This document shows positions 11,468 to 30,328 of a DNA stretch of 64,000 nucleotides, piece after piece. The stretch's first letter is position 1; every line of letters begins with the position of its first letter. A program made the translations under genes and the position numbers. The stretch spans positions 32,001 to 96,000 of IMG/VR virus record IMGVR_UViG_3300005264_000040. One strand, 5' to 3'. The stretch is from a virus. The notes under the pieces are model-generated. The model worked only from the letters and a program-made list of their open reading frames with translations. It searched no databases and had not been told where the DNA came from.

Positions 11468-11570
11468 CGTCGCAAATCCACTGTTCAAAGGGGTGCAAAT
11501 GACGGGCAACGACTCTATTATATATATATAATAGGACCGTTAAACGTCAAACGCACCCCTATGAATAGCG
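11468..11570. repeat. 103-bp imperfect palindrome, copy A
   Basis: Central perfect 20-bp palindrome ctattatatatatataatag (11515-11534), GC-rich imperfectly inverted arms; second copy at 30226-30328. Confidence 0.95.
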
Positions 11571-11789
11571 ACTTTGAGGTACTTTTTGGGTACTGTAATG
11601 CACCTCGAAATTACCATTTTTTCCAAAAATAACTCCAACAGAGAAAAATCTTTAAAATTACGATGGCTGTAATAGGCATAGAAAGTATCTTACAGAAGAA
11701 CAATATATCAAATATGTATGCCATATTATGCTCAAGTAACATGTTTATTAAATACTTAAAAGGGATTTTGTAACAAAAAATGCTTGAAT

Positions 11790-11818
11790 TTGACAACCTA
11801 TGCTTAAAATGTTATAAT
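11790..11818 (+). promoter_or_regulatory. consensus sigma70-type promoter
   Basis: TTGACA-N17-TATAAT with extended TG. Confidence 0.85.
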
Positions 11819-11834
11819 TATAAGGGGTGATAGA

Positions 11835-12146
11835 ATGAAAGAAATCGCAGATAAATTAGAAAATATTGTTGATTTTCACATTAGAATTGAAACAGATAAA
11901 AAGTTAAGAGAAGTTGAAAAATTAATACTAAAACTTTCTAAAGAAGAAAAAATAGAATTATTTGCAGAAATATTCAAAAGAAAGATAAAACATATTCCAG
12001 TAATTTATTTTGCTAAGTATGAAAAAGATTATGATACTGGTTTTATAGATGTTGCTTTACAAAGAGAAGAGACCATTTTAGGAAGGATATTAGATATTCT
12101 AGATGAGGAGGATGATGATATTGTTTTACCTGAAGATTCCATATGA
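11835..12146 (+). CDS. hypothetical protein
   Basis: 103-aa ORF behind consensus promoter and RBS AAGGGGTG. Confidence 0.75.
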   Translation: MKEIADKLENIVDFHIRIETDKKLREVEKLILKLSKEEKIELFAEIFKRKIKHIPVIYFAKYEKDYDTGFIDVALQREETILGRILDILDEEDDDIVLPEDSI

Positions 12147-13884
12147 TCCGGAAAAGATTCAAATTTTAAAGGACCATGGGTTTAGGTGGGATCCTGACAA
12201 GAAACAATGGTATGGAGAACCTACACCATGGAATGTAAAAGCGTTAGAAATCGAAGATTATTTTAACCCGGTTCCAAAAAGAATTGAATTGTTTTCAGAT
12301 TATTTAAACAACAGAAAACCTTTACCTGATTATTTATACGGGTATCAAAAAGAATTTGTGCTTTGGGCTTTAGAAAGATATGTGAAAAAGTATAAAGGTT
12401 TATTACTTGCAGATGATATGGGAATAGGGAAAACTGTACAAGCTATTGCGTTTTTTTCTCTTCTTATGAAAACATACTACAAAGAAAGAAGGATGCAAAC
12501 TGCAACTGTATATGTAACCACGAAAAGTGTTAAACAACAATACAGAGATGAAGTAGTTAGATTCGAACCAGAAATCCTTGCATATGAAAAGATAACAGAA
12601 GTACCAAAAAATGTTCCTTTTGCATTAGTTTTACATTATGAACAAATAAAAACGTTTTTTGAGCATAAAACCAAAAACAAACTTACTGAAGAAGAAAAGA
12701 TTTTAGATTCTATTCTGAAAAAATTTCAAGAAGGTGAAATTCCATATTTTGTAGTTTATGATGAAATTAGTAAAAAGATGAAAAACAAACAAACCGGAAA
12801 TACAAAATCTTTAAGAAAAGCATTTCCAAATCCTATACTAACATTAGCTACAACAGGAACTCCTATGGAATTGAATCTGAAAGAATTTTATACAATTGTT
12901 GATATTATTTGGCCAGGGTATTTCCCTTATAAAGTATTTGAAAGAGACCATGTAGTAAAAAAAGAAATATTTAATAGACACACAAGAAGAAGGCAAGAAA
13001 TAATTTCACATTATAAAAATCAAAAATTATTTTATGAAAGAGTAAAAGATATTATGTTGCGAAGATTAAAAGAAGATCAAAAGAAAAATGGCACTATGCA
13101 ACTTGGAGAAAAGCATATGATGTTTTGGGAAGTCCCATTAGATAAAACTCAAGAAACATTTATAAATATTCTTATCAAACAAATTGAAGCGCAAGTTGAA
13201 GATAAATCCCAAATACCGTTTAAAGCTTCTCCATTTTTAAGACAAATATTTAATCATCCTGCAGGAATGTTAATGTCAGATACAGAAGTTATTGATATGC
13301 AAGATTTCCCGAATATACCAGAAGATTACGTTCCTCCTAAATTTAAAAAAATAAAAGAGAAAACAGAAGAATTATTATCAGAAGGAAAGCAATTAATTAT
13401 ATTCACTTATTACACAAGGACTGCGAAATTGTTGGAAAAGTATTTAAAGACAGAAATTCCAAGTATAGGAATAAAAGTATTATCAGGTGAAGTTCCACAA
13501 AAAAGAGTAACTGCAGCTATAAAAGAATTCAAAGATAAAGCATATAATGCTATTATAGCTACTGATACAATTGCATATGGTGTGAATTTACAATTTGTCG
13601 ATCACATGATTATGGTAGAAACACCTTACAATCCAGCAGTATTCCTCCAAAGAACAGATAGAATTTATAGAAGCGGTTCAACTACAGATAAATTTATTTA
13701 TGTATTATACTCAAAAGCAGAAGAAAAAATCATTAAAAGATTAATAAAGAGGATGGAAGATGCAACAGAAGCTGTAGAAGGACGTAGAAAAAAAGCAAAT
13801 GTAGCTTTCGTTAAAGAGTTAGATATGATGTTATATGATGATTTGGTAGGGTTGAAAAGAAACAAAAGGAGGCTTTTAAAATGA
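12103..13884 (+). CDS. SNF2-family (SF2) helicase/ATPase
   Basis: Q motif LYGYQ, Walker A LLADDMGIGKT, motif II YDEIS, TGTPMELNLKEFY, helicase-C GVNLQ and QRTDRIYRSG. Confidence 0.88.
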   Translation: MRRMMILFYLKIPYDPEKIQILKDHGFRWDPDKKQWYGEPTPWNVKALEIEDYFNPVPKRIELFSDYLNNRKPLPDYLYGYQKEFVLWALERYVKKYKGLLLADDMGIGKTVQAIAFFSLLMKTYYKERRMQTATVYVTTKSVKQQYRDEVVRFEPEILAYEKITEVPKNVPFALVLHYEQIKTFFEHKTKNKLTEEEKILDSILKKFQEGEIPYFVVYDEISKKMKNKQTGNTKSLRKAFPNPILTLATTGTPMELNLKEFYTIVDIIWPGYFPYKVFERDHVVKKEIFNRHTRRRQEIISHYKNQKLFYERVKDIMLRRLKEDQKKNGTMQLGEKHMMFWEVPLDKTQETFINILIKQIEAQVEDKSQIPFKASPFLRQIFNHPAGMLMSDTEVIDMQDFPNIPEDYVPPKFKKIKEKTEELLSEGKQLIIFTYYTRTAKLLEKYLKTEIPSIGIKVLSGEVPQKRVTAAIKEFKDKAYNAIIATDTIAYGVNLQFVDHMIMVETPYNPAVFLQRTDRIYRSGSTTDKFIYVLYSKAEEKIIKRLIKRMEDATEAVEGRRKKANVAFVKELDMMLYDDLVGLKRNKRRLLK

Positions 13885-14081
13885 AGAAAATTTTGATATT
13901 ACGAACCTTATTTATAATTTTGTTTTGGATAGTATGGATAGTAGCATTTAGCTATTTACCAAAAGAAATTATAGTATATATTACTTCATTTATAATATGG
14001 TTCTTTTTAGGAATTTCATTAAATATGTCCTTGCATAAAAGTATAAAAAAAAGAATAAACAAAGAGAAGCGTGAAAACTAA
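13881..14081 (+). CDS. small membrane protein (2 predicted TM)
   Basis: Two hydrophobic stretches, basic C-terminus, ATGA overlap. Confidence 0.65.
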   Translation: MKKILILRTLFIILFWIVWIVAFSYLPKEIIVYITSFIIWFFLGISLNMSLHKSIKKRINKEKREN

Positions 14082-14491
14082 TGGAAAAAAGTAGTATTAT
14101 ATTTTACATGATAGGATTAGGTATAATATCTACAATGATATTATTATTTAACGAAGTATTTCATTATAAAATTATTTTATTTGCAAAAAAGAAAAAACTA
14201 TTTGTTTATAGGTTAGAACAGGAAGAGATGGATGAAATTGAAACAGAAAATAGAACTTTGTTTGTAATAGAACTAGCTGTAATATTTTTTATAGGATTAT
14301 TTGTATTTTTAAATTATTATATAGTAACAATAATTTCATTAGTTGTATTTGTGGGTTTAATAACTTACCATTTGCTTTTTGCAAAAAAACTTTTTTTTAT
14401 ATTTGAAATTTTTAAAATAAGGGAAGGAGATAAACAGCATGAAAGAAATCTTAGAAAAATTAATGCAAATATCATACGAAAAAGAAAATGA
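14081..14491 (+). CDS. membrane protein (about 3 TM)
   Basis: Hydrophobic segments; TAATG coupling. Confidence 0.6.
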   Translation: MEKSSIIFYMIGLGIISTMILLFNEVFHYKIILFAKKKKLFVYRLEQEEMDEIETENRTLFVIELAVIFFIGLFVFLNYYIVTIISLVVFVGLITYHLLFAKKLFFIFEIFKIREGDKQHERNLRKINANIIRKRK

Positions 14492-14753
14492 AATCCCAAA
14501 TAGGTTTATGAAACTTATAGAAGAAGTAGGAGAAGCAAGTCAAATGGCATTAGCTTTTCAAAGAAATATAAGTGCTTCTGAGAGTAAAAAGGCTATAGCA
14601 ACAAGAGAAAATGTGTTAGAAGAATTAGTTGATGTTTTAATAGTTGCTTTTGATATATATATACAGATGTCTGATGCTGAAGATTGGATTTCTGAATTAG
14701 AAGAAATTATGAATAAAAAATTGGAAAAGTGGCAAAGAAAAGCCACCTCCTAA
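14439..14753 (+). CDS. MazG-like nucleotide pyrophosphohydrolase
   Basis: KLIEEVGEAS and VLEELVDVL acidic helical motifs typical of all-alpha NTP pyrophosphatases. Confidence 0.8.
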   Translation: MKEILEKLMQISYEKENEIPNRFMKLIEEVGEASQMALAFQRNISASESKKAIATRENVLEELVDVLIVAFDIYIQMSDAEDWISELEEIMNKKLEKWQRKATS

Positions 14754-14765
14754 TTACTACTTTTG

Positions 14766-14806
14766 CTCGGGGCAGGGCAAACGGGGTGCTCTCCTCGAGA
14801 CTTTTT
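14766..14806 (+). terminator. GC-rich hairpin, putative terminator
   Basis: ctcgggg-c-agggca / tgctct-cctcgag stem, T5 shortly after. Confidence 0.5.
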
Positions 14807-14826
14807 AAAATAAAAAGGGGGTATGA

Positions 14827-15084
14827 TTGTTGAAAACAGTGGTTTATAAACACTATAAAGGCAAAGAATACATGATTCTTTTAGATAATGCCTTTATAGA
14901 AAAAAACTTAGAAAGAGCAGTAGTTTATAAAAGCATTGACGATGGAAAAGTTTGGATTAGACCGTATGATGAGTTTTTTGGTGAGGTGGAAATAAATGGA
15001 AAGAAAATTCCAAGATTCCAAAAAAGATTAAAAGAGGATACCTTGCAAGAATATTATTCTAGGAAAACAAGTTTAGAAAAATAA
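14827..15084 (+). CDS. DUF1653-like protein
   Basis: YKHYKGKEY...VVYKS..DGKVWIRPYDEFF..VE...PRF pattern. Confidence 0.8.
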   Translation: MLKTVVYKHYKGKEYMILLDNAFIEKNLERAVVYKSIDDGKVWIRPYDEFFGEVEINGKKIPRFQKRLKEDTLQEYYSRKTSLEK

Positions 15085-15107
15085 AATCAAGAAAGGGGAT
15101 GTAATGC

Positions 15108-16358
15108 ATGAATGTTATTTTGGAAAATTACAAAATGCTTCAAGAAGAAATAAAAAATGAAAAAATAAAAAAAGGAAAGCAACTTATGCAAGATGGACAT
15201 ATTGCAGAAGGGTTGAAAATTTTATTAAAAGAAAAAGTTCTTGTACCAGGAGCAACTGAATATTTAAAACATCCAGATGCCAAAGTAAGGATTGCAGCTA
15301 TGCAATATTTAATTAAAGCAAAAAATGAAGAGGATTTTTTAGAAGATATGGTTCATGATGAAAATCCACAAGTCAGAATCAAAGCTATTGAATTATACTT
15401 TGATTATGTACCCGCATCAAATGTCAGCAAATTCTTGGAATTTTTATTAGATGAAGATTATAAAGTTAAAATAAAAGCTTTTATATTGTTATTAGAAAGT
15501 GGTTTTTTTGAAGATACAAAGAAGTTTGTAGAAGAACATAATATAATCGAATTTAAAGATATATTTACAGGAGATTCAATTGATATATTAAAAGATGAAT
15601 CTGTGCCTAAGAAAATAAAAGTTACTCTTTTAAACTACATAGTTATGAATATGCCTATGTCAGAATTTGATGAAAAATATTTTGATTTATATAAACAATT
15701 AAATAATGATTTGAAAAAACAACTTTTAATTTGGATAAGTAAAGCGCCAGAAACTGAAAAAAGATTAGAGAAACTTTGGAAAATAGAAGGTAATGACGAA
15801 TTAAAAGCTATAATGCTTGGAATGGCAAGAAGTAAAATTGTCGAAGAAGCTGAATTAATAGATTTAATAAATGAAACAAAATCAGTTAAACTAAAAAAAG
15901 CAATATTGAATTATGCAAGAAGAATAGATAGCCTTAATTTTATAGATGAAGCGAGAAGACTAATAAATAATGATGAACTTGCAGAAGAAGCTGCAGCTTA
16001 CGCCATATCTATGTTAGATTATGAAGCATTAAACATTAATAGAATTACAGAATGGTTAGAATCAAAATCTCTGGGAAAAATCAGAAAAGCTTTGGCAGGA
16101 ATAAAAAAATTAAAATATGAAGAAATGGCTCCTGTTATTTATAATAAAATAATTGAAAATAAAAAATATCCAACAAATATAAGGACTGCTGCAATCAATA
16201 CCATTAAAATGCTGAAATTGCCAGAATACGCAAATGATTTCATGAAATTAACAAATGACATAGAAGAAGATTTAGCAGTCAGAGAAACTGCGTTGAAAGC
16301 AGTTGCAAGACTAGACCCAAGTCTTTTAGAAAATTTACACAATACCCCAAGCGTATAA
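15108..16358 (+). CDS. HEAT-repeat (alpha-solenoid) protein
   Basis: Repeats such as LKHPDAKVRIAAMQYL, VHDENPQVRIKAIELY, LLDEDYKVKIKA, VRETALKAVARL. Confidence 0.75.
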   Translation: MNVILENYKMLQEEIKNEKIKKGKQLMQDGHIAEGLKILLKEKVLVPGATEYLKHPDAKVRIAAMQYLIKAKNEEDFLEDMVHDENPQVRIKAIELYFDYVPASNVSKFLEFLLDEDYKVKIKAFILLLESGFFEDTKKFVEEHNIIEFKDIFTGDSIDILKDESVPKKIKVTLLNYIVMNMPMSEFDEKYFDLYKQLNNDLKKQLLIWISKAPETEKRLEKLWKIEGNDELKAIMLGMARSKIVEEAELIDLINETKSVKLKKAILNYARRIDSLNFIDEARRLINNDELAEEAAAYAISMLDYEALNINRITEWLESKSLGKIRKALAGIKKLKYEEMAPVIYNKIIENKKYPTNIRTAAINTIKMLKLPEYANDFMKLTNDIEEDLAVRETALKAVARLDPSLLENLHNTPSV

Positions 16359-16361
16359 CGC

Positions 16362-16715
16362 TTGGGTTATTTAAGAAAGGAGATGATGCTTGTGGATATG
16401 GATATGGAAATGTTATGGTTTAAAGCGTTTTTGGTTTCTGCAGAATACATTTTAATTAAAGAAGAAGATGAACAAATTTTTGAAGAACAGGTAGAAGAAC
16501 TTTCTTTTATTTTGTATGATTCATTAGAAAATAAAGAAGATATTGATAGAGACGAATTAACAAGAGAAATAAGAAATACATTGAGAGCATTTGTGAATAA
16601 ATTAAAAACATTGAGGAACACCGAAGAAAATACAGTTAAAACTAATGAAAGATTTGAAGGTTTTTTCATATCTTTGGAAAAGGCTTTTACAGCTAATTTA
16701 ACATCTTTAAACTAG
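16362..16715 (+). CDS. acidic hypothetical protein
   Basis: Open frame in co-directional run; internal SD GAAAGGAG before ATG 16383/16386. Confidence 0.6.
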   Translation: MGYLRKEMMLVDMDMEMLWFKAFLVSAEYILIKEEDEQIFEEQVEELSFILYDSLENKEDIDRDELTREIRNTLRAFVNKLKTLRNTEENTVKTNERFEGFFISLEKAFTANLTSLN

Positions 16716-16724
16716 AGAAAGGAG

Positions 16725-17351
16725 TTGAACAATGTGAAAATAAATTATCCAACAAGAACAATGATTATAGGAGAAAAAAAATATTTAGAAGGGGTAATAA
16801 GAGCTTTAGATTATGAGAAAGAAAACATCGCTGCATCATTAGAATTACAAGTTTCAAAACGTACTCAATTTTCAAAAGAAGGAAAATCATATTTTACGAT
16901 TGTAACATATAGTCCTGATGTTAATCCTACAGAATTAATGGAAACCATAATAGAAATAAAAAATAAACACATAGAACCAGTAGTATTATATGCAACACAA
17001 ACTAAGAATGGTTTAAAATTAGAAAATTTAGAACTAAGAAGTTTTGACGCAGTATATGCTGATTTCAAAAAGGTAATTGAAGACACAAAAGTTGAAACCA
17101 TAAATACTATAATTAATACAATAAAATATGGAACTTATATAGAAGTGCAGATAGACGAAGACCAACTACAAGAAATAAAAGCTTTAGCAAAGAACATTTT
17201 AAGTCCTTCTGAATTTAAAAACGCTATAATGGATGTATTTGAAATTTTGCTGGATCGTAATATCGTAAAATTCAAAATTTTTGATCAAAAGAAAGAAAAA
17301 AAACTTTTAACTTTTGATAGTTTATTGGAGGTGTTGGGCATTGAAAAATGA
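16725..17351 (+). CDS. hypothetical protein
   Basis: 208-aa ORF, SD GAAAGGAG. Confidence 0.7.
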   Translation: MNNVKINYPTRTMIIGEKKYLEGVIRALDYEKENIAASLELQVSKRTQFSKEGKSYFTIVTYSPDVNPTELMETIIEIKNKHIEPVVLYATQTKNGLKLENLELRSFDAVYADFKKVIEDTKVETINTIINTIKYGTYIEVQIDEDQLQEIKALAKNILSPSEFKNAIMDVFEILLDRNIVKFKIFDQKKEKKLLTFDSLLEVLGIEK

Positions 17352-18303
17352 ATTACTTTACTACACTTTTAAAGATTTGTTTAAGGCTCTTTATAGCAGA
17401 TATAGATATCCGCAGGAAATTATTTCACAATATTTGGATTATGCTGATGCTATCTATTATTATGAACATACACACGACAAGCTAATGAATTTATATGAAA
17501 AACTTTTTCCTTTAAGATGTATGGGAGAATTAATAGCAAAAACATACACTAACGATAACGCCAGAATGTTCTCCGTACCTTATTTTGATAACAATTTTCA
17601 AAAACATATGTATACTTGCATAGCAATTCCTGAATATAGTGAAAAAAACTTTATTGTATATATGAATAATATTAGATTTACATTTGAAGAACTGAAAGAT
17701 TTAGAAAGAATAGTCGAAACGTTTTTAAGAGATTCTTTTGAAGATGTAAATAAAATAGAGTTCAGAAGACTTCTTGTAAATAAAGCTGAATTAAATCCTT
17801 TTTATTCAAACGAAGCTATATTAAAAGATGATAACGAAACTATAATTAATAAGGTTTATTTGTTTTATGAAGAAGTAAATCCGGAGTATGCAAAAAAAAT
17901 CAAGAAAAGAATTACTTATATGAAAAATCTTTATTTAGAGTTATTTGGTGAAGAAAAGGAACACGAGTTTTATAAAAAATTGATAGATTATGTAAGCAGA
18001 CAATCTGCAGATTTTTCTGGGTTTATCAAAGAATTTATTAGAAGTTATTTAGAAACAAAGCTAATAGAAAAAACAATAGCAGAGTATGCAAATTTTAAAG
18101 TACAAAAAATTCATTTCGGTTCAGAAATTGCAGAAGTTGAAGATGTTGTTAGACAAACGTTATATAATTTAAGAGTTTATAAAGGAACAAATATTATAGA
18201 AATTTATATGGGGAAAGAAAAACTTTTAAATGTAGATTTAAAATATACCTCAGAATACGCCTTTGCGGTAAAACTAAAAACTTTATTTAAAGGGGGTAAT
18301 TAA
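17314..18303 (+). CDS. hypothetical protein
   Basis: 329-aa ORF, internal SD GGAGGTG. Confidence 0.7.
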   Translation: MIVYWRCWALKNELLYYTFKDLFKALYSRYRYPQEIISQYLDYADAIYYYEHTHDKLMNLYEKLFPLRCMGELIAKTYTNDNARMFSVPYFDNNFQKHMYTCIAIPEYSEKNFIVYMNNIRFTFEELKDLERIVETFLRDSFEDVNKIEFRRLLVNKAELNPFYSNEAILKDDNETIINKVYLFYEEVNPEYAKKIKKRITYMKNLYLELFGEEKEHEFYKKLIDYVSRQSADFSGFIKEFIRSYLETKLIEKTIAEYANFKVQKIHFGSEIAEVEDVVRQTLYNLRVYKGTNIIEIYMGKEKLLNVDLKYTSEYAFAVKLKTLFKGGN

Positions 18304-18304
18304 A

Positions 18305-18547
18305 ATGGAAGGACCATCAGGATGGTTATGGTTTCTATGGGCAGGACTAGCAGTTTGGGTTTTTTTAGACGCATATTATAAAAAAAATAAAACTGAATTA
18401 GTCTCTTTCTTATGGGGGTTAATAACATTCCTTTTTGGAATTTTTGGAGCTCTGGCTTATTTTTTTATTACATTTGCAGAAAGAAGAAATATGCAACTGA
18501 GGAAGGAGGAAGAAGATGAAGAAAGAAATTCTAGAGAAGATAACTAA
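18305..18547 (+). CDS. small membrane protein (2 TM)
   Basis: WLWFLWAGLAVWVFLDA and FLWGLITFLFGIFGALAYFFI hydrophobic helices. Confidence 0.7.
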   Translation: MEGPSGWLWFLWAGLAVWVFLDAYYKKNKTELVSFLWGLITFLFGIFGALAYFFITFAERRNMQLRKEEEDEERNSREDN

Positions 18548-18992
18548 AAAAATAATAGAAGAAAAAAATAATCAACCACATGAAGAATATATAGAATTAA
18601 TTGATGAAAATACAAGGTTAGATCTTGAAGCATTTGCAGAAGAAATTCAAGAATATCCAAAAGAAAAAGTTGAAGAACTAATAAGCCATACATACGTAAA
18701 ACTTTTAAATATTGCAACATTCGGACTTTCTACACCAAATGAAGGAATTACTTTGAAAGGATATGTTCATATGATGTTGAACACTATTTTGAAATTAAAA
18801 CTTCTTATGGAATTGTATCCTGGATATAACGAGTCATTAATAAACATGCATAGCAACGTGGTTTCTGGAAAATACACAGGAAGTAATGCTGATGGAAATG
18901 TTCATATTTATTTTAAAGCCAAAACAAATTCAGCTCTTGCTGATAAAATGTTTAAAATTTTGAAGAATATTGAAGAATTCATGAGGCCTTGA
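18516..18992 (+). CDS. hypothetical protein
   Basis: 158-aa ORF, SD AAGGAG. Confidence 0.7.
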   Translation: MKKEILEKITKKIIEEKNNQPHEEYIELIDENTRLDLEAFAEEIQEYPKEKVEELISHTYVKLLNIATFGLSTPNEGITLKGYVHMMLNTILKLKLLMELYPGYNESLINMHSNVVSGKYTGSNADGNVHIYFKAKTNSALADKMFKILKNIEEFMRP

Positions 18993-21690: not shown

Positions 21691-22812
21691 ATGCGTTATT
21701 CGTATTCATCAATTTCTACTGCAAAAACTTGTCTTTATAAATGGTATTGGGAATATGTAAAAAGAGAAAGGATACCTTCAGGAAAAGCAGCGCAGGTAGG
21801 AAGTTCAATGCATGCAATTTTAGAAACATATTATAAAACTATACCTGGAAACAGTCATGACAAAAACCATTTATTAGAACTAGCAAAAGAAATGACAGTT
21901 GGTGCTGGCCATTCTCATAGAGAGGAAGTAATTTCTACTTTAAAAAAATTTGATTTAACTTTATTGCCCGAACCTATGTTTAGAAAATACATAGCTACAG
22001 AATTACAAATCAAATTAAATGAAAATTATGAGGTAGATGAAAATGCTGATTTCTTTATAGGAATAATTGATTTATTATATTATGATCCAACAACAAAGAA
22101 ACTTTGGGTTATTGATTATAAAAGCAATAAAAGGCCAAATGCCGACACACAACAATTAAAACTCTATAGTTATTTAGCTTATAAAGCTTTTAAAGGAAAG
22201 CTTGATATAAAGTCAATAACTACAAAATATGTTTATTTGAGATTAAACCAAACAATAGAAGATACACCAAATTTAGAGACATTAGAAGAAGATTTGGAAA
22301 CTTATTTAAAAGAAAACATAAATCATCTAAATTTCTTAGTAGAAAAAATTCCAGAAGAACCTACACCAGAACAGATAGCTGAAGTATTCAAACCAACGCC
22401 TAGCTGGTTATGCTCATGGTGTGGAGCAAGAGCAGCTTGTCCTTTATATCAGCACGGAATGCATGTTGCAAGAACTATAATAAAGAAAGAAAACACTGAA
22501 TATTCAATAGAGGAAATGGCTGCCTTTTTGATTATGCAAAAAACAATAGCAAAAGATATTGAACAGGCTTTAGCAGACAAACTTTCAGCTCAAAATCTTT
22601 TTGAATACAAATTTAATGGTAAAGAATTAATAGTTGAATATGAATACGATTTAGATTTTGAAAGCTTTGAAGATATAATCGTAAAAAATCATCCGGACAA
22701 AATATCATGGATTGAGAATCCTCCTTCTTACAATGAGCTAAGAAGAGTGCTAACATTCGAAGAATTCGAATCGTGCGTTATTTCAAAACCCAAGGGAGTA
22801 AAAGTCCGATAA
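21691..22812 (+). CDS. PD-(D/E)XK nuclease, Cas4/AddB-like (probable recombination exonuclease)
   Basis: YSYSSISTAKTC at N-terminus, GIIDLL, VIDYKS, QLKLY, C-terminal CSWC...C (1+3 Cys Fe-S pattern). Confidence 0.88.
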   Translation: MRYSYSSISTAKTCLYKWYWEYVKRERIPSGKAAQVGSSMHAILETYYKTIPGNSHDKNHLLELAKEMTVGAGHSHREEVISTLKKFDLTLLPEPMFRKYIATELQIKLNENYEVDENADFFIGIIDLLYYDPTTKKLWVIDYKSNKRPNADTQQLKLYSYLAYKAFKGKLDIKSITTKYVYLRLNQTIEDTPNLETLEEDLETYLKENINHLNFLVEKIPEEPTPEQIAEVFKPTPSWLCSWCGARAACPLYQHGMHVARTIIKKENTEYSIEEMAAFLIMQKTIAKDIEQALADKLSAQNLFEYKFNGKELIVEYEYDLDFESFEDIIVKNHPDKISWIENPPSYNELRRVLTFEEFESCVISKPKGVKVR

Positions 22813-22909
22813 ATTGCATAAAAAGATACTCCAGAAATAGCAACAAAGATGTAACATTCCATAAAAAATAGAGGAAATGCGGAGTTCGTGAATTTCTACT
22901 AAATGTAAC

Positions 22910-22951
22910 AAAATTGCGCCCTTTACAAGGCGCAATTTTTTGTGATATAAT
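22910..22951 (+). promoter_or_regulatory. terminator hairpin overlapping a promoter
   Basis: aaaattgcgcc / ggcgcaatttt stem with TTTACA (22922) in the loop and TG-a-TATAAT at 22943-22951. Confidence 0.55.
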
Positions 22952-23039
22952 ATATAGCGAACTAAAAAATAAGGGGAGTAAAAATAAAACCCCGAGCCCA
23001 AAAAGGAACCCGGGGACCCCAATCTAATAAAGAAAGGAG

Positions 23040-26000
23040 TTGAACAATATGAAATACAATAAAATAAAAATCCAAAAAGAAAGAAAAATTGACCCTAGAC
23101 TCAAATGGATTCCGGCAACAGCCATTGTAGCGGAATTCCGTGTATGCCCAAAATGCGGCGATGCAAAAGGACATTGTGGATACTACGAATTTGAAGATGG
23201 ATCAATAAGAGAATACTGTGTAAAATGCGAACATAAACACATATTCAAAACATCTTCAAAAAAATTATATCATGATGATGTTAAGGTTGTTTCACAAGAT
23301 TATTACAATATGATAAACAAGATAGAGAATATATATCCTTATTCTATCCGAACAGAGGATGAACTCGCATTTTTCGAATGGGCTAAGTCTAGAGGGTTTA
23401 ATGACGAGTTCTCTGAATATCTGTTCGGGCGTCGTTATTTTTATATGCAATCTCCATTATTTAATTCTGCATTGAAAAATTCTCCTGTTATTTCTATTCC
23501 TGTATATGACATTAGTGAAAGAATTGTCGGTGTTAGGTACAGAATGATTAATCCTGGCAAACACGGCAAATATTTATGGGATAGAAACTACAAAACCAAA
23601 CCAACTCCTTTCTATACTTTCGTTAGAGGTTCCAAACCTAAAATAGAAACTATTTATATTGTTGAAGGTGAATTTAAAGCTGAATTCATTTCATGGACTT
23701 CTGGTCAAGCAGCTTTAGGTATCATCGGGTTGGGGAATCTTAAGAATAAAAAAATAGCAGCAATACTTGAAAAATTCAAAGATTTAAAACAAGTTATCTA
23801 TGTACCAGATAGAGATGTATTTACTCAATGGCATAAATATGAAATGATAATGAAGGAAATGTTCTACCTTCAAAAACGTATTTATGGATTGAATGTAGAT
23901 GTTTTATATTGGCCGTTTTATGAAATTGAAAAGAATGGTTTTGATGATTATCTCCTTTCTTTGCAAAAAGGAGAAAAGCCTTTAACGTCTAAATTTAATA
24001 TAGAAGAGTTAGCAACTCCTTTAAAAGAAGAAGTAGAAAAACAGGTTGATATACTTCTTAAAAAAGATGATACTTTTAAATTTATTAAAAACAAAGAAGG
24101 TACTTCTTTGTTCGAAGTTATAAAACCTGAAATATCTACTTCTAGTACTTATACAGGAGAATCAAGAATTGAACTTTGGAGACAAGCTTTGTTAAAAAGG
24201 AAATTTGTATTGGATGTTTCAGGTACTGGTTCTGGTAAATCTCATACTACAGCTATCGATTTGAAAAAAGTTGTAGAAAAAGGCGGTTTTAAAGTTATTC
24301 CTAAAAAAATGACTAGAGAGGACGGTACTGAAGTAGAATATTTATCTACTCCGTTCAAAATTTTCTATGTTAGTCAATCTCCTATAAATCCTACTATTGA
24401 TAAATTTGATGAATGGTTCTTATACAGAGGGAGAACTCCTAACGGTCATTGGTATTCTGAAACATTAGAAAAATGGGAAGAAGCTCCTTCTCCTGATAAA
24501 GCTCATGAAGATTATCCACCAACATGTTTAAATCCGGATTTATATACTATTAGAGAAGATACTAATTCAAACTTATTTACTAATAACTATTGTGATTTAT
24601 TCTGTCCTATGAAAGAAAATTGTAATTATATTGCTCAAAAAAGAGAAATGATGGACAGAGAAACAAAATTTGTTAGAATTTCTTATAAATCATTGCCTTT
24701 AATGGATGAAACTTTGGTAATTATAGATGAATCTATAATTTTCTCACATCTTGAACATATTGAAATAAATCTTAATCATTTAGCTCAATTGAATTATGCT
24801 GCACATAGTGCAAAAGAATTATTAAGGCATGTTATTGTTTTAAACAATTCACACATGTTCGATGAAGAATTAAATAAAACATTATTAGAAGAAGAAGTAG
24901 AATCTACTGTTAAATTTTTCGAATTATTCTCTTTGTTTTTAAATTCAGCAAACTTTGGAAAATTGCAAGCTAAAAAGAACGCTACCTTTAAAGAAGTGCA
25001 TGATGCTTTTGCTGATTTCTTAGTAGAAAATGAATTAACTCCTCTTGAAAAATTAATAAATCCTTATTTCGATTTTGATTTTGAAAAAATGGAAAAACTT
25101 CTTGAATCACTTTTTATTTTAGGTAATGCAATAAAACAAAACAAAAACGGAAAATTACCAAGAGAAGCAAGAAAAGCAAAAAGATGGTTAGAAAAGAATA
25201 ACGTTAATTATTATGGCGTCTTAAACAATGTAGAAAATTATCATGAATTATTAAGGATAATGTACGCAATTAAAAGCATGGGACGCAACGGTTCTGTTTA
25301 TGTTGCAAATAAAAAATTGTTTGTTGTAGTACCAGATTTGAAAACATTGTCTTTATTGCAAAAAGTAAAAGACGGAAAAATCTATTTAATTATTTTAGAA
25401 GCTACTCCTAATAACCCTACAATTGAATATATTACTAAATTCCTGAACCCTGTTACTGTTGGGGATTATACTATTCCCAAAAACTTAACCCTGATTAAAA
25501 CAAAAGGTTTAGGTAAAATGACTTTTAAACCTACAAAGAAAAAATCAGAGAAGAGATTGGAATATATTAAAGAATTCCATGAAAAACGTTTTGGTGATAA
25601 AAAGAAAGGTATTATTACTTCACAAAAAGAAATTATATTAATGCATGATGAATTCAAGAAAGAATTCGTAAAATATGGATACTGGTTTAAAGATGATAGA
25701 GGAAGTAATAAATTCCAGGATGTAGAAGTATTATATCTGCAAACTCCTCCTATAAGAAACCTTGCTACGGTTTCTGGTGAAATAATTGCTTCAAACTATT
25801 CCCTTGAAGGGGAAAGTACTTTCATATTAAACCAAGTTGAAAAAGAACTTTCTAATACATATGTTCAGGCTGTTGGTAGATTAAGAGCTCATAGAAGAGC
25901 TAATAAAGATTTATATGTAGTTTTTACTGATGATATTCCTTTACCTTTTAGCGTAGATGAGGAAATTGAAATTGGTGATTATGTTGATAAATTGAAAAAA

Positions 26001-27269
26001 GGAAACAATGTTATTGAGAGATTGAATAAAGAAAAGCATAAACAAGCCTTACTCAGAATAGGTGAATTATATCGTTTCTTTGATTTTGTGTATAGACGTT
26101 TTATTCCTACAAAAACAATTGTTAAGTTTGCTGCTAAAAAATTCGAAATGAAAGAAGATTATGTACAACGAGTTTGGAGTGAATATTTAAAGAAAGTACA
26201 GCCAGTACCAAAAATTACAAATGAAGAGGAAATAGAAGCATTCAGAAAAGATTTTCAGCACATCCCAATTACAACTTCAAGTTTGGGATTTGCTAAAACT
26301 TTCTTATTATCAAAATTATTGTTAGATAATTTTATGGATAGTCCTGACAAAGGCAAATTCTGGCAGAGGTTAGGATTAAATCCTAAAAAATCAGATTATA
26401 ATAAGGGGGTAATTAGGCGCATGTTAAAACATTTTAATTTTGAGGAAGAAGATCCAGATGCTATTTTAAAAAGCATCGAAAAATCATTTGGCAGTGAAAT
26501 TATTGAACATATCGATAAATTAACGGAAGAATATGAAAAAACTTTAAACATGATAGAAGAGCACAAAGAAAATATGCAAATTGATAGATTTAAGTTGTTA
26601 AAGAAAGAAATGCCTAAATTAGAAAAATGGTTCTCAGATGACAAAATGCCAGATGCAAGTTTCAAAACAACTGGTCCGGATGGAAAACCAGTTTATATAG
26701 TTAGGAATCCAACTGATATGTACAGAGTAATGAATTTCATTTTAAGATTCGTAAATTCAGGAAAAAGATTAAAAATGATGGTTGATAAATTCTACAAAGA
26801 AGCACCAAAGGAAAAAGGTGTAAAACCTTTCTCATGGAAAGACAGACAAATTCTACATATGTATATTGATGTAGAAACTTATAAACCGAATGACGGTAAA
26901 TTTAGCAAACCAAAAGTATTTATGACAGAAGAAGAAATAGAAGCATTGCCTACAGATGATGTTATGGTTAGAACTATTACTTTAAGAATTCCGTTCTTGG
27001 ATAATGCAACATTCGTTTTTGATATAGAAAAAAGTGATCCTATAGCTAATGGTGCATTAGATACATATTACCACCCTATGAATTCTACAGATGTAAGATT
27101 CCATTTGCAACATTACGATGAATACAAAGCAAACAAAGAATTCTTAATGTCTAAAAGAGCAGAGTATTTAAAAGAAAGAACAGAACTTTTAGAAAAAATA
27201 AAAAGACAAGGTGTTCCTTTTCAAAGATTAAAAGAATTAGATGAAAAATATAATGGCAAGGATACATAA
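23040..27269 (+). CDS. primase-helicase fusion (Zn ribbon, TOPRIM, SF2-like ATPase) with C-terminal DnaQ-like ExoI motif
   Basis: CPKC..HC..CVKC; IVEGEFKA, YVPDRD, GFDDY (TOPRIM); GTGSGKS Walker A; 4-Cys cluster; IIDES; QAVGRLR; MYIDVETY near C-terminus. Confidence 0.8.
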   Translation: MNNMKYNKIKIQKERKIDPRLKWIPATAIVAEFRVCPKCGDAKGHCGYYEFEDGSIREYCVKCEHKHIFKTSSKKLYHDDVKVVSQDYYNMINKIENIYPYSIRTEDELAFFEWAKSRGFNDEFSEYLFGRRYFYMQSPLFNSALKNSPVISIPVYDISERIVGVRYRMINPGKHGKYLWDRNYKTKPTPFYTFVRGSKPKIETIYIVEGEFKAEFISWTSGQAALGIIGLGNLKNKKIAAILEKFKDLKQVIYVPDRDVFTQWHKYEMIMKEMFYLQKRIYGLNVDVLYWPFYEIEKNGFDDYLLSLQKGEKPLTSKFNIEELATPLKEEVEKQVDILLKKDDTFKFIKNKEGTSLFEVIKPEISTSSTYTGESRIELWRQALLKRKFVLDVSGTGSGKSHTTAIDLKKVVEKGGFKVIPKKMTREDGTEVEYLSTPFKIFYVSQSPINPTIDKFDEWFLYRGRTPNGHWYSETLEKWEEAPSPDKAHEDYPPTCLNPDLYTIREDTNSNLFTNNYCDLFCPMKENCNYIAQKREMMDRETKFVRISYKSLPLMDETLVIIDESIIFSHLEHIEINLNHLAQLNYAAHSAKELLRHVIVLNNSHMFDEELNKTLLEEEVESTVKFFELFSLFLNSANFGKLQAKKNATFKEVHDAFADFLVENELTPLEKLINPYFDFDFEKMEKLLESLFILGNAIKQNKNGKLPREARKAKRWLEKNNVNYYGVLNNVENYHELLRIMYAIKSMGRNGSVYVANKKLFVVVPDLKTLSLLQKVKDGKIYLIILEATPNNPTIEYITKFLNPVTVGDYTIPKNLTLIKTKGLGKMTFKPTKKKSEKRLEYIKEFHEKRFGDKKKGIITSQKEIILMHDEFKKEFVKYGYWFKDDRGSNKFQDVEVLYLQTPPIRNLATVSGEIIASNYSLEGESTFILNQVEKELSNTYVQAVGRLRAHRRANKDLYVVFTDDIPLPFSVDEEIEIGDYVDKLKKGNNVIERLNKEKHKQALLRIGELYRFFDFVYRRFIPTKTIVKFAAKKFEMKEDYVQRVWSEYLKKVQPVPKITNEEEIEAFRKDFQHIPITTSSLGFAKTFLLSKLLLDNFMDSPDKGKFWQRLGLNPKKSDYNKGVIRRMLKHFNFEEEDPDAILKSIEKSFGSEIIEHIDKLTEEYEKTLNMIEEHKENMQIDRFKLLKKEMPKLEKWFSDDKMPDASFKTTGPDGKPVYIVRNPTDMYRVMNFILRFVNSGKRLKMMVDKFYKEAPKEKGVKPFSWKDRQILHMYIDVETYKPNDGKFSKPKVFMTEEEIEALPTDDVMVRTITLRIPFLDNATFVFDIEKSDPIANGALDTYYHPMNSTDVRFHLQHYDEYKANKEFLMSKRAEYLKERTELLEKIKRQGVPFQRLKELDEKYNGKDT

Positions 27270-28939
27270 TGATATCAGATACTTTGAATTGGTTTAAATA
27301 TATTGCTACCAAAGAAACCAGTGTAAGAGACTTTATAGGAATTTTTGACCAAAGAAAACCTATAAAACTTATAGACTTTATCAGAAAATATGATGATACT
27401 TTTATTCCGGAATTTGAACAGTCATGGTGGCAACAGAATAGAATGACCAAAGAACATTATAAACATGCTTATGTTTCAATTTTCTATTTAGATAGAGTTA
27501 CAAGAATGGGAAGACAGGTTATGAGATACGTTCATACTGATATTGGTATTATAGATTACAGAGGAGAAGATGTAGAAGCATTCATCAGATTCCAGGAAAG
27601 ACTAGGAAATAGAACTTATATCGCATATGATAGAATGGTAAAAGTCTCAACGGATATAACAAGGAACGGTTTTGCTGTAGATGTACATGCATTGAATGTC
27701 GCTGAAAACGGATTAAAACTCATGTTCAATCGAATAAAAGCAGTATTGCACAACCAATATAATTTAACATCTTTATCCAAACCACATTTATTAGCAAAAC
27801 ATATAAAAGAAAGATTAGAGCTTAAAGATGAACAATATGCTGAATATGCAATGGAAGCTACAGGAAACGAAACATCTTTAACAGCAAAAGAAACTCTCGA
27901 GACATTGATTTATTATTATCCAGACCATGAAGAATATCTTAAGTCTATACTACATTACAAAGATATATATGCAAAACTCAATGTAGTAAAACAAATCAGA
28001 AAACACATGAAATATCATCCGGATGAAGATATTTATAGAATCCATTCTATATTTAGACATAATACTTCAGCAACAGGACGTTTCATTTCATCTAATCCGA
28101 ATATACAGAATTTCCCAAAAGACAAAGATATAAGAAATATTTTAGGATTCCCTTATGGTTCAGATAAAGTATTAGTAAGTGCTGACTATCCACAAATTGA
28201 GTTAAGAGTGTTTGCTGATTTAAGGGCTGATTTCCATATCACATATGATTTGATAAAAGCATTCCAAGAAAATAAAGATTTACATAGAATTGCAGCATCG
28301 GCTATTTATAATAAACCATATGAAGAAATTACAGATGAAGAAAGACGCGTAGGTAAAGTATTAAACTTCGGTATATTATACGGTATGTCCCCTCAAGGAC
28401 TTAAGAGGTTATTATGGACGCAATTAAAAATGGATGTAACTGTTGAGGAAGCAAAACGATTCATAGACTTATATTTGAGTAAAAACGAATTTGTTGCCAT
28501 TAAACATTGGCACGAAGATATGTGGCCATACGTTTCAAATCGTGTTGATTCCAGAAATGGAAGAATAAGACACGACAATGAATTAAGGATTTTAATAGCA
28601 GACCATGCATTCTTATTAATACCATTCCATAAAGGTGAAAGAATAGAAACTACATTTAGAAGAATATTAAACTATCAGATACAGGCATCAGCAGCTAACT
28701 TAATAAAATATGCATTATCTTTATTAGATAAGAGATTAATTTCTGAAGGATTAGATGAAAAGATTAAGATAGTTAATGTAATCCACGATGAAATTATATT
28801 AGAAACAGAAAAGAAATATGCAAACAAAGCTGCAGAAATATTGAAATGGGCTATGGATACAGCAGCTAATACTTACTTAAGAAAAGTTTCAGCTGATGTA
28901 GAAGTCAATGTGAATCAAAAATGGGGTAATCTTAAGTAA
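27269..28939 (+). CDS. DNA polymerase family A (polymerase domain)
   Basis: TGRFISSNPNIQNFP, motif A ADYPQIELR, DLHRIAA, motif B RRVGKVLNFGILYG, NYQIQASAA, motif C IHDEII. Confidence 0.95.
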   Translation: MISDTLNWFKYIATKETSVRDFIGIFDQRKPIKLIDFIRKYDDTFIPEFEQSWWQQNRMTKEHYKHAYVSIFYLDRVTRMGRQVMRYVHTDIGIIDYRGEDVEAFIRFQERLGNRTYIAYDRMVKVSTDITRNGFAVDVHALNVAENGLKLMFNRIKAVLHNQYNLTSLSKPHLLAKHIKERLELKDEQYAEYAMEATGNETSLTAKETLETLIYYYPDHEEYLKSILHYKDIYAKLNVVKQIRKHMKYHPDEDIYRIHSIFRHNTSATGRFISSNPNIQNFPKDKDIRNILGFPYGSDKVLVSADYPQIELRVFADLRADFHITYDLIKAFQENKDLHRIAASAIYNKPYEEITDEERRVGKVLNFGILYGMSPQGLKRLLWTQLKMDVTVEEAKRFIDLYLSKNEFVAIKHWHEDMWPYVSNRVDSRNGRIRHDNELRILIADHAFLLIPFHKGERIETTFRRILNYQIQASAANLIKYALSLLDKRLISEGLDEKIKIVNVIHDEIILETEKKYANKAAEILKWAMDTAANTYLRKVSADVEVNVNQKWGNLK

Positions 28940-28954
28940 TAATATAAATAAGTC

Positions 28955-28978
28955 AGCGCCTTTAAAAGGCGCTTTTTG
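28955..28978 (+). terminator. intrinsic terminator
   Basis: agcgcc / ggcgct stem followed by T tract. Confidence 0.7.
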
Positions 28979-29043
28979 TGTTTTGTTTAAGATATTTTAT
29001 ATGTTATAATTAGATAGAATTAAATCTATAAGGAGGGGAAACC

Positions 29044-29403
29044 GTGAAAATTGATTTAGAAATTGTAACTCCAGATTCAAAAATAGTGGATAGTATGCAG
29101 GTTATTTCTCAAGTGCGATTGTTGTTGCAATCAGTTTATATCCTTACTATGAATACTGTCGAAGAGGATATAAAAAAAATAGGACAAATTAATAAACTTA
29201 AACATGACCCTAAATTACTTACGGAATTAAATGCAAAATTAAAAACAGTTCAAAACAGGTTCAATGTAATGCCTCCTATTGACGCTGTTATTTCTAATTT
29301 GAATATTGAATATAAAGAAGAAAAAGATGCAGTGACGGCTATTATGAATATTGAAATAAAAACGAATAACGGCACTACCCTCAAGTATCAACAAAACTTA
29401 TAA
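29044..29403 (+). CDS. hypothetical protein
   Basis: GTG start, SD AAGGAGGG, upstream TG-t-TATAAT at 29002-29010. Confidence 0.7.
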   Translation: MKIDLEIVTPDSKIVDSMQVISQVRLLLQSVYILTMNTVEEDIKKIGQINKLKHDPKLLTELNAKLKTVQNRFNVMPPIDAVISNLNIEYKEEKDAVTAIMNIEIKTNNGTTLKYQQNL

Positions 29404-29416
29404 GGCGGGATTTCTT

Positions 29417-29737
29417 ATGGGTACTTTAACAAAACAAATTAAAAGATATGAAAAAATAGTTTTAGAAGATGAAGAACAAAAAAAACACTATATAATATAT
29501 GATCCCATAATGCATTATATGTATTGTGAGACTTGCAATGAAAAAATTATCGTCTCTATGGCCTCCAGGAACGTCTCAGAAGTCCGATTTAATGTTTCTG
29601 ATACCATTTACTTAGAAATAGATAAAAACGTTGAAATAAAGGCTGATTTTTTTTCTTTTGAATGTAAATGTTCTAAATATAAAATAAATGCTCAATCTTT
29701 AAAAACACAATTAGACGAAGCAAAAAAAGGGTGGTAG
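29417..29737 (+). CDS. hypothetical protein, possible Zn ribbon
   Basis: CETC and CKC pairs. Confidence 0.6.
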   Translation: MGTLTKQIKRYEKIVLEDEEQKKHYIIYDPIMHYMYCETCNEKIIVSMASRNVSEVRFNVSDTIYLEIDKNVEIKADFFSFECKCSKYKINAQSLKTQLDEAKKGW

Positions 29738-29738
29738 T

Positions 29739-30167
29739 ATGTATGCGCAAATATATTTAAGCGGTAATTCCGCTTTATCTGAAATGCTAAAAACTAACGC
29801 TTCTTACGTTATATTAGCCCAACCTTCTACAGAAGTATTTTTTACTTCTCCAGCAAATATCTTAATTTCAACGGATCCGGAAGATGCGATAGCAGTATCT
29901 GCTCCTTTGAGTTCTATAAACGAATTGAATTATTATTTAAAATTATTACAAGATAAGTTTAATTTTCCTTCTACCATAAAGCATGATTTGAAGAAAAATA
30001 GCTTGTTAAGCATTGATAAAGATGTTTCACAGTATAAAAAAAGTTTTTTAAACTTTTGTTTTGTAGAACATCTTAGAATGTTATACTTGCCAAATTTCTT
30101 TACTTACACGCTTACTATTCCTTACGAGGAAGGTAAAAAACTCCTTCAGACTATGTATTACTTTTAG
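29739..30167 (+). CDS. hypothetical protein
   Basis: 142-aa ORF coupled to previous gene; ends at terminator. Confidence 0.65.
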   Translation: MYAQIYLSGNSALSEMLKTNASYVILAQPSTEVFFTSPANILISTDPEDAIAVSAPLSSINELNYYLKLLQDKFNFPSTIKHDLKKNSLLSIDKDVSQYKKSFLNFCFVEHLRMLYLPNFFTYTLTIPYEEGKKLLQTMYYF

Positions 30168-30189
30168 TCCCTTGTGGGACTTTTTTTTT
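30166..30189 (+). terminator. intrinsic terminator
   Basis: agtccc / gggact stem then T run. Confidence 0.75.
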
Positions 30190-30225
30190 ACCATGTGCAC
30201 TAAAAATATAGGAACGTCTGTAACC

Positions 30226-30328
30226 CGCTATTCATAGGGGTGCGTTTGAGGGGCAACGACTCTATTATATATATATAATAGGATCGTTAAACGTCATTTG
30301 CACCCCTTTGAATAGTGGATTTGCGACG
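30226..30328. repeat. 103-bp imperfect palindrome, copy B
   Basis: Core 41/42 identical in direct orientation to copy A; arms are reverse complements of the opposite arms of copy A (35/36 and 24/25). Confidence 0.95.

Follow-up and report, generated by a model that had tools for sequence, protein, structure and literature searches.

A five-copy palindrome with one inverted centre in the genome of an uncultured phage: a candidate origin or enhancer site

The HSV origin oriS is built from an AT-rich centre lying between inverted initiator boxes (PMC12543377), and the dispersed imperfect palindromes of baculoviruses, the hrs, serve as both origin and enhancer and act via a dimeric viral activator (PMC4535591). 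Sequence between inverted repeats can also change its orientation: template switching at imperfect inverted repeats has been documented to flip the spacer between them (PMC8604942), and hairpin-associated small inversions are known from plastid DNA (PMC6824564). In inversions of this kind the exact reverse complement takes the place of the segment that the inverted repeats bound, the arms are left as they were, and such events recur and can reverse. The flip/flop isomers of the AAV (parvovirus) ITR and of poxvirus telomeres are of another kind, since they are terminal hairpins that isomerize at the same locus in every replication round; and telRL of N15, which has a perfect central dyad within a palindrome, is a single resolution site per replicon that goes with hairpin genome ends.

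We examined a window of 64,000 nucleotides (positions 32,001 to 96,000 of IMG/VR record IMGVR_UViG_3300005264_000040) together with the full 177.8-kb record, which we take to be that of an orphan myophage, ~180 kb and uncultured; it is ~83% complete and encodes very divergent proteins, most of which have no Pfam match. The record carries exactly five copies of one non-coding palindrome, at 3.3 (c1), 43.5 (c2), 62.3 (c3), 122.0 (c4) and 156.0 kb (c5), and the second and third of these, A and B below, occupy 11465..11576 and 30213..30330 of the window. A half-site profile run against the genome returned ten half-sites at E<=1e-12, the next match having E=8; the boxes of the palindrome were found nowhere else in the genome, and neither were decayed copies or solo half-sites, all five copies being complete. 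When the 177.8-kb genome was scanned for palindromes, scores of at least 18 were reached by these elements only, and by nothing in the shuffled genome. The five gaps that house the copies rank among the largest intergenic gaps, three of them between co-directional genes and two (c4 and c5) between divergent ones, and the blocks that they head are sigma-like/early, replication, head-tail, large ORFans and ThyX; c1 and c2 begin within 5 bp of the upstream stop codon. Identity among copies is 85-100% over the inner 72 bp. The flanks are mosaic, with cassette pieces common to several gaps (the right flank of A and the flank of c4 are 96% identical over 117 nt). The collections that we searched held no related genomes, pattern scans across viral and metagenome collections produced either no matches or matches at chance level, and no homologue of the phage's SNF2 helicase exceeded 37% identity over 25% of the helicase's length.

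All ten half-sites have the same layout, outer arm-AGGGGTGC-n3-TGACG-n3-AACG-n3-CTATTATATA, and their boxes are identical in 10/10 except for TGACG (9/10); the first box is preceded by CTATTCAW in 8/10. Asymmetry is confined to the 3-nt spacers between boxes, which define two kinds of inner half, alpha (GGY..ACT) and beta (TTY..RTC), and each copy consists of one of each, joined at a perfect 20-bp alternating-TA palindrome, CTATTATATATATATAATAG. In A, this centre (11515..11534) is entered from the left through the X arm, AGGGGTGC (11489-11496), AAA, TGACG (11500-11504), GGC, AACG (11508-11511) and ACT, and left through GAC, CGTT (11538-11541), AAA, CGTCA (11545-11549), AAC, GCACCCCT (11553-11560) and the Y arm. 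In B (centre at 30262..30281), the left half reads AGGGGTGC (30236-30243), GTT as the first spacer, TGAGG with a private G (30247-30251), GGC, AACG (30255-30258) and ACT, and the right half GAT with a private T, CGTT (30285-30288), AAA, CGTCA (30292-30296), TTT, GCACCCCT (30300-30307) and the X arm, which extends to 30328. The bases flanking the TA palindrome are thus non-complementary in both copies (ACT/GAC in A, ACT/GAT in B), as the initial annotation had noted. As DNA, the palindromes fold into hairpins with z-scores from -6.4 (A, -24.4 kcal/mol) to -9.1 (B, -30.7 kcal/mol), and 0/200 shuffles folded equally well. The stems show no covariation, however, and the spacers never turn complementary. 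Dyad symmetry ends about 36-59 bp from the centre, beyond which each copy has unique flanks, so that these are not fold-back junctions.

The resemblance to HSV oriS and oriL lies in an AT-rich centre between inverted non-identical boxes (which in HSV bind protein), in an imperfect dyad able to form a hairpin once unwound, and in the presence of several copies per genome between divergent or adjacent transcription units; but the box sequences are unrelated, each half-site of the phage has three to four boxes, its copies number five, and no UL9-like origin-binding protein was identified in the phage. Like the hrs, the phage elements are dispersed intergenic imperfect palindromes between gene blocks and are homogenised within the genome. 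Most hrs, however, are tandem arrays of 24-30-bp palindromes in ~60-70-bp repeats, whereas each phage locus has a single pseudo-dyad of 90-118 bp with a TA centre; neither tandem arraying nor extra half-sites nearby were seen at any of the five.

That A and B form an inverted-repeat pair is an observation far beyond chance: they are 87% complementary over 103 nt, and each was also scored as a palindrome in its own right. The initial annotation had described them as reciprocal hybrids, with cores in direct and arms in swapped, inverted orientation, and our recount returned the same figures. The cores (11504-11545 and 30251-30292) match at 41/42 positions directly and at only 31/42 when inverted; one arm (11468-11503 against the reverse complement of 30293-30328) matches at 35/36, compared with 18/25 in direct register, and the other (11546-11570 against the reverse complement of 30226-30250) at 24/25, compared with 20/25. 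B therefore has its arms as in the reverse complement of A and its centre as in A. If the central 40-50 bp of the reverse complement of A are inverted, agreement with B rises to 70/72, as against 60/72 unflipped and 64/72 in direct orientation, and a flip of ±20 or ±25 bp gives the same score. The switch points accordingly fall at 30247..30251, inside the symmetric TGACG box (here TGAGG), and at 30292..30296, inside the CGTCA box. A single central inversion accounts for B at 70/72, without a crossover between the two copies. The arrangement of A is the canonical one, common to c2, c4 and c5, and the reciprocal spacer linkage occurs in B only. Centre and arms must nonetheless have been re-assorted more than once, given that the X arm goes with the alpha half in c2 and c5 but with the beta half in c1 and c3, and that the long (X) arm of B is closest to that of c1 (24/26, compared with 21/26 for A).

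The two copies do bracket a replication block (11835..30167, plus strand), as first described, but they do so as two of five copies and the bracketing is not exclusive to this block. Its genes include those for an SNF2 helicase, a HEAT-repeat protein, a weak SSB-like protein, a PD-(D/E)XK nuclease, a 1409-aa primase-like protein and a family A DNA polymerase, along with ORFans, and its tetranucleotide composition is typical of the genome (47/80 equal-sized windows are more deviant). Downstream of A lie, on the plus strand, a companion motif ATATGTATGCCATATTA at 11712..11728 (motif M, a 6-bp inverted repeat with a 5-nt spacer) and a perfect sigma-70-type promoter, TTGACA-17-TGnTATAAT (11790..11818), 17 bp ahead of the first gene of the block, an ORF at 11835-12146 that is followed by the SNF2 helicase (12103-13884). 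Motif M occurs in the genome as five exact copies, each of which lies in a palindrome gap (though none beside B) and points to a gene start 82-128 bp away. At the other end, a plus-strand hairpin with a T9 run, resembling an intrinsic terminator (30166..30181), closes the last gene of the block upstream of B, and two sigma-70-like plus-strand promoters with TG-extended -10 boxes (30362-30389 and 30447-30476) stand between B and the head/tail block, whose first gene is at 30509-31612. From this order of terminator, palindrome, promoters and gene, B is probably untranscribed. GC skew showed no inflection at A or B and hence no positive origin signal.

Because the phage is without relatives, the function of the palindrome is one that we infer. 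The reading that we consider somewhat better than an even bet is that of a dispersed pseudo-dyad acting as a protein-binding cis element, an origin and/or enhancer, with B set apart from A by a single inversion of the spacer between inverted repeats. The palindrome would act as double-stranded DNA on which a phage protein lands as a dimer or oligomer, and its centre may be easily melted or prone to cruciform extrusion; its placement ahead of the promoters that serve the main gene blocks would suit an origin, an enhancer or both. That the boxes are invariant, the stems without covariation and the spacers non-complementary fits protein contacts on duplex DNA better than a selected hairpin. Box invariance could, however, stem from recent homogenisation rather than selection, and the effectively independent versions number three (c2/c4/c5, c3 and c1). 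Of the options raised by the initial annotation, paired cruciform origins with a flipped core come close to this reading. The reciprocal-hybrid look of A and B would then result from the asymmetric inner 40-50 bp of B having been inverted relative to its arms, with breaks in TGACG and CGTCA. The event could have been a template switch or a short-tract conversion in which two copies pair in antiparallel register; neither would require a dedicated recombinase or an exchange between A and B. B resembles the documented spacer inversions in that the differing segment is the reverse complement and is bounded by inverted repeats. Those, however, involve spacers of a few to tens of bases between arms of at least 9 bp and are seen among orthologues, whereas the phage unit is 40-50 bp long, partly palindromic and bounded by 5-bp boxes, and its inversion is deduced between paralogous copies. 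For a template switch, 5-bp boxes are on the short side, which counts against such a mechanism. A more elaborate scheme, to which we give a rather small chance, is an hr-like network of combined origins and enhancers in which a phage-encoded oligomer would bind the sites and cooperate with the RNA polymerase and sigma factor that the phage itself encodes, the alpha|beta centre would set direction and could be switched by inversion during initiation, and flip and flop forms would coexist in the population.

Might the chimeric form of B simply reflect mis-joined repeats? The central 34 bases are identical among copies and Logan contigs break at the palindromes, which would favour such an error, but the discriminating positions of B all fall within 56 nt and are therefore spanned by single reads, and its private variants adjoin the discriminating spacers. 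The ENA scaffold is identical to the IMG record across both palindrome gaps, and Logan contig L010 opens with CAACGACT, the TA palindrome, GGATCGTT and the long arm, so that a single k-mer path carries the private T together with the core orientation and the X arm. Judged by this comparison, in which three assemblies, all probably from one sample, agree on the sequence, the arrangement is not an artefact, and we regard mis-assembly as extremely improbable. Hybrid attL/attR-type sites were one of the headline proposals of the initial annotation; on this view the 18.7-kb module entered, or can leave as a circle, by site-specific recombination in the 42-bp cores, with the regeneration of symmetric-armed parental sites. 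The shared core and swapped arms do match integrase sites formally, and the block between A and B is functionally coherent; but there are five sites rather than two, c4 and c5 carry the arrangement of A without reciprocal partners, the long arm of B is nearer to c1 than to A, the bracketed module does not stand out in composition, and a long core with a 20-bp palindrome inside it would leave the direction of crossover unfixed. No excised form of the module occurs among the assemblies. The annotation had recognized no recombinase or protelomerase in the window, and a search in six frames of the 177.8-kb record gave no match at E<=1 for tyrosine and serine recombinases (Phage_integrase, PF00589; Resolvase, PF00239); at the same threshold there was none for Y1_Tnp (IS200-type) and IS110 domains or for protelomerases of the ResT/TelK type (PF16684); ParB was not detected, and the extra 5.3 kb of the ENA scaffold raised no Pfam flags for recombinases. 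Although a divergent recombinase could be missed, since most proteins of this phage are without a Pfam match, excision through A and B now appears highly unlikely. Least credible of all is the suggestion that the palindromes are telRL-like, being cut to hairpin ends or marking fused segments or a concatemer junction. A perfect TA-rich palindrome within a longer imperfect dyad does resemble protelomerase targets, and a flipped centre is formally like flip/flop isomers; against this are the missing ResT/TelK catalytic domain, the five internal sites with unique flanks and symmetry that stops near the centre, where a poxvirus-type concatemer junction would continue outward into long inverted terminal repeats, and surroundings that are ordinary operon heads with promoters.

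The inner asymmetric part of B, standing either way relative to the outer stem, also recalls AAV and poxvirus isomers, and the centre might invert regularly, for example at initiation through a hairpin or cruciform, the assembly then showing the majority form of a mixture. Both relative orientations of centre and arm do exist among the copies (three against two with respect to the X arm), the breakpoints lie in symmetric boxes and the element is strongly hairpin-prone. The phage forms, however, are internal, at different loci and stably diverged; three assemblies give one isomer at A and at B, the two private substitutions of B imply a state that has persisted for some time, and no nickase or HUH enzyme was detected, so that we find such programmed switching improbable. 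An RNA-level role, in which a long bulged transcript hairpin would serve RNase III-type processing, stabilisation or termination, could draw on the very stable folds with three regular internal loops and on the start of c1 and c2 just after a stop codon. But B is preceded by an intrinsic terminator and followed by promoters, c4 and c5 lie between divergent genes, and the element stands either way round with respect to transcription, so that the RNAs would differ; the absence of stem covariation, spacers that never pair and the lack of an Rfam match likewise make this account unlikely. Nor do we give much weight to a selfish palindromic element, MITE-like or spread by homing and with no function for the phage, which is about as improbable as regular flipping. 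Dispersed, near-identical copies with mosaic flanks, and gaps that share cassette pieces such as the one beside A and c4, are what it would predict, yet no transposase or homing enzyme was recognised, no target-site duplication was seen, no copy is decayed or reduced to a half-site, and all copies stand at operon heads, the many other intergenic sites being free of them.

If the palindromes are indeed origins or enhancers, a phage would have its own version of the dispersed palindromes that fill these roles in large eukaryotic DNA viruses, and there would be an entry point to regulation in a lineage almost all of whose proteins are of unknown kind. The idea of an excisable replication module or a hairpin-telomere system, for which we find no evidence, is removed as a false lead. 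Copy B is in any case a clean natural case of spacer inversion within a functional-looking pseudo-dyad, and its flip shows that the inner halves tolerate re-orientation relative to the arms while the boxes never vary.

Both palindromic sites at the ends of the replication block, copy A (window 11465-11576) and copy B (window 30213-30330), have exactly the geometry described in the initial annotation. Their 42-bp cores are direct repeats (41/42 positions identical, compared with only 31/42 when one core is inverted), and their outer arms are inverted and swapped, matching in this sense at 35/36 positions for the long arm and 24/25 for the short arm (18/25 and 20/25 in direct sense). The centre of each is the perfect palindrome CTATTATATATATATAATAG, with non-complementary triplets on either side. 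Mis-assembly is an unlikely source of this arrangement, though the three available assemblies probably share one sample, because the 184,070-bp ENA scaffold is identical to the record across both intergenic gaps and because Logan contigs (run SRR6301447), which end at the palindromes, agree with the record at these ends. One such contig carries the core orientation, the private T of copy B and the long arm together on a single path.

The genome (i.e., the IMG/VR record of 177,768 bp, of which the window covers bases 32001-96000) contains five copies of this palindrome, centred at genome 3333 (copy 1), 43524 (copy 2, or A), 62271 (copy 3, or B), 122049 (copy 4) and 155982 (copy 5). These elements were the only long palindromes returned by a scan of the genome, a shuffled genome gave none, and the single-strand folds of the elements have z-scores of -6.4 to -9.1. 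A half-site profile searched against the genome recovered exactly 10 half-sites (E<=1e-12), the next match being noise (E=8); neither the conserved boxes nor degenerate or solo half-sites were found elsewhere in the genome, and the additional 5.3 kb of the ENA scaffold lacks a further copy. All copies lie in intergenic gaps that are among the largest, three between co-directional and two between divergent genes. It is therefore true, as first noted, that A and B bracket the replication module, but every major block has a copy at its head: Copy 1 precedes a block whose products include a 406-aa protein bearing a helix-turn-helix like that of sigma-70 region 4, A heads the replication block and B the head and tail genes, and large ORFans lie on either side of copy 4, and a 1131-aa ORFan and ThyX on the two sides of copy 5. 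The orientation of core or arms showed no correlation with gene direction, the side of the companion M motif or genome position that was valid for all five copies, and the first genes beside the copies include no paralogs that might encode a cognate binder. The right flank of copy A (window 11546-11600, comprising the short Y arm and about 45 nt, GAGGTACTTTTTGGGTRCTG...) is repeated with 96% identity beside copy 4 (genome 121974-122030, - strand), so that the repeated unit is a cassette larger than the palindrome.

All 10 half-sites share one organization, which, read towards the centre, consists of an outer arm, AGGGGTGC, 3 nt, TGACG, 3 nt, AACG, 3 nt and CTATTATATA. The boxes are invariant, with the sole exception of TGAGG in the left half of B, and asymmetric positions are confined to the three spacers, which form the three internal loops in every fold. 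The inner spacers are of two types, alpha (GGY, ACT) and beta (TTY, RTC), one of each per copy. In copies 1, 2, 4 and 5 an outer AAA spacer goes with alpha and an outer GTT (ATT in copy 1) with beta, whereas in B this linkage is reversed (GTT with alpha, AAA with beta). The long outer X arm (CGTCGCAAAYCC...) is joined to the alpha half in copies 2 and 5 and to the beta half in copies 1 and 3, and that of B is nearest to the X arm of copy 1 (24/26, as against 21/26 for A).

Because inverting only the central 40-50 bp of the reverse complement of A yields B at 70/72 positions, both mismatches being private substitutions of B, copy B is a canonical copy (i.e., one with the arrangement of copies 2, 4 and 5), in the orientation of copy 4, but with its asymmetric centre inverted. 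Without this flip, the reverse complement of A matches B at 60/72, and A and B compared in direct sense match at 64/72. Flips of ±20 and ±25 bp score equally, so that each switch point falls within a box of the symmetric TGACG/CGTCA pair (30247-30251 and 30292-30296). Copy 1, with its X arm on the beta half, is a less clear-cut case of a second re-assortment in which the switch lies further out (80/88 against a flipped copy 5, 78/88 against copy 4 as it stands).

Polymerase template switching is documented to replace a segment between imperfect inverted repeats by its reverse complement, a change that is recurrent and can be reversed (PMC8604942), and small inversions associated with hairpins are common in plastid DNA (PMC6824564). 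The centre of B could have been flipped by template switching of this kind between its imperfect inverted repeats. Conversion over short tracts, with the copies paired in antiparallel register, might have produced the same outcome, and either route would need neither a dedicated enzyme nor an exchange between A and B.

Two other readings are that A and B are hybrid sites of the attL/attR type, through which the module of about 18.7 kb is excised, or telomere-type sites. A six-frame search of the record (about 83% complete, with most of its proteins lacking a family match) detected at E<=1 no Phage_integrase or Resolvase domain, no Y1 transposase or IS110 domain, and no ResT/TelK domain. Three copies moreover have the canonical arrangement but lack reciprocal partners, the tetranucleotide composition of the module is ordinary, and the excised or symmetric-armed form is absent from all assemblies. 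As for telomeres, dyad symmetry extends no further than 36-59 bp from the centre, with unique sequence beyond it, so these sites are not fold-back junctions. Taken together, these observations leave excision and telomere resolution, both proposed initially, as very improbable readings of the two sites. A ParB-type centromere was rejected, since the same search of the record (E<=1) found no ParB_N domain, and a role as RNA is improbable, since B is placed between a terminator and the promoters that follow it, copies 4 and 5 lie between divergent genes, and the elements have no Rfam match (nor does the window contain any Rfam family).

On balance, and with moderate confidence, we take the palindrome to be a protein-bound cis element that acts as an origin, an enhancer, or both. 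Because the boxes are invariant while the intervening spacers are never complementary, the pattern points to a symmetric protein that contacts the DNA as a duplex; had a hairpin been selected for, a different one would be expected. The initial suggestion of cruciform-type origins with a flipped core comes close to this conclusion, except that the sites number five and are not a pair. GC skew gives no signal at the palindrome sites. Like the oriS of HSV, the element has inverted, slightly different boxes (here, predicted binding boxes) around an alternating-TA centre, and in oriS two origin-binding protein dimers bend and melt the AT spacer (PMC12543377). The dispersal of copies between gene blocks resembles that of baculovirus hrs, which are enhancers as well as origins (PMC4535591).

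The order at B is an intrinsic terminator (30166-30181), the palindrome, two sigma-70-like promoters and the gene; at A, the palindrome is followed by the motif ATATGTATGCCATATTA (11712), a promoter and the gene. This promoter (TTGACA-17-TGnTATAAT; window 11790-11818, + strand), a perfect sigma-70 consensus with an extended -10, directly precedes the replication block, and comparably strong sites lie ahead of several other blocks (genome 13573, 18137, 51435, 62447, 102669 and 158647), suggesting that part of the genome is served by host-type transcription. The genome contains five exact copies (3512, 43712 and 122090 on the + strand, 121862 and 155816 on the - strand) of the 17-bp M motif ATATGTAYGCCATATTA (an AATATG-5 nt-CATATT inverted repeat, at window 11712-11728 on the + strand), which TGCTYAAGTWAC often follows. 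All are in palindrome gaps, none of them beside B, and each faces a gene that starts 82-128 bp away. The motif may represent a special class of promoter or operator, perhaps one used by the polymerase and sigma of the phage itself. The 406-aa protein (genome 5129-6349, + strand; L029:1729-2949), whose C-terminal helix-turn-helix resembles sigma-70 region 4 and HTH_17 and whose gene lies 1.8 kb downstream of copy 1, is a candidate for such a sigma or for a DNA-binding regulator.

The phage, whose GC content is low (27-34%), is an orphan. It has a myovirus-type structural set, including the major head protein (36454-37344), tail sheath (40067-41929) and terminase large subunit (45782-47407, - strand), and a replication block with an SNF2 helicase, a weak SSB-like protein, a PD-(D/E)XK nuclease, a 1409-aa primase-like protein and a family A polymerase. 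Among cultured phages even its best matches reach only about 30% identity, and there is no match at the DNA level. Among 5.8 billion proteins the SNF2 helicase retrieved itself and weak matches only, with no real homologue, and scans seeded with the PolA and SNF2 helicase proteins found no related locus. By terminase, the closest cultured relative is Salmonella phage Arash (about 30% identity), which has no long palindrome at the threshold used for this genome and whose published description mentions no palindromes, promoters or origins. Exact-pattern scans gave 0 matches to the element in viral_contigs and 0 to its centre in metagenome_contigs. The half-site pattern had 83 single matches in metagenome_contigs and 1 in viral_contigs, which we read as chance because each stands alone, with neither a second half-site nor a TA centre.

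The ENA scaffold (L027:1-7096) reaches 5.3 kb past the start of the record and, somewhere within genome 1-1646, is longer than the IMG record by about 176 bp; short repeats of 70-115 bp (78-80% identity) tie this extra DNA to the opposite end of the record (genome 177250-177766). At window 23040-28939 (+ strand), the ENA gene call is a single 2011-aa product with a PolA domain at its end, and the window has the 1409-aa primase-like ORF and a 556-aa PolA ORF with a 1-base overlap at 27269; the discrepancy may reflect differing sequences, a frameshift or the gene calling. Within a 1110-aa ORFan (54143-57475), window 54537-55873 (- strand) holds about ten tandem 63-bp (21-aa) repeats and a 123-bp repeat pair. 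The second gene after copy B (ORF 31684-32721) contains four to five diverged copies of a repeat of about 34 aa (...AYNELIQQGYSPEEAQ...; window 32000-32613, + strand), and its many weak Pfam matches are repeat noise.
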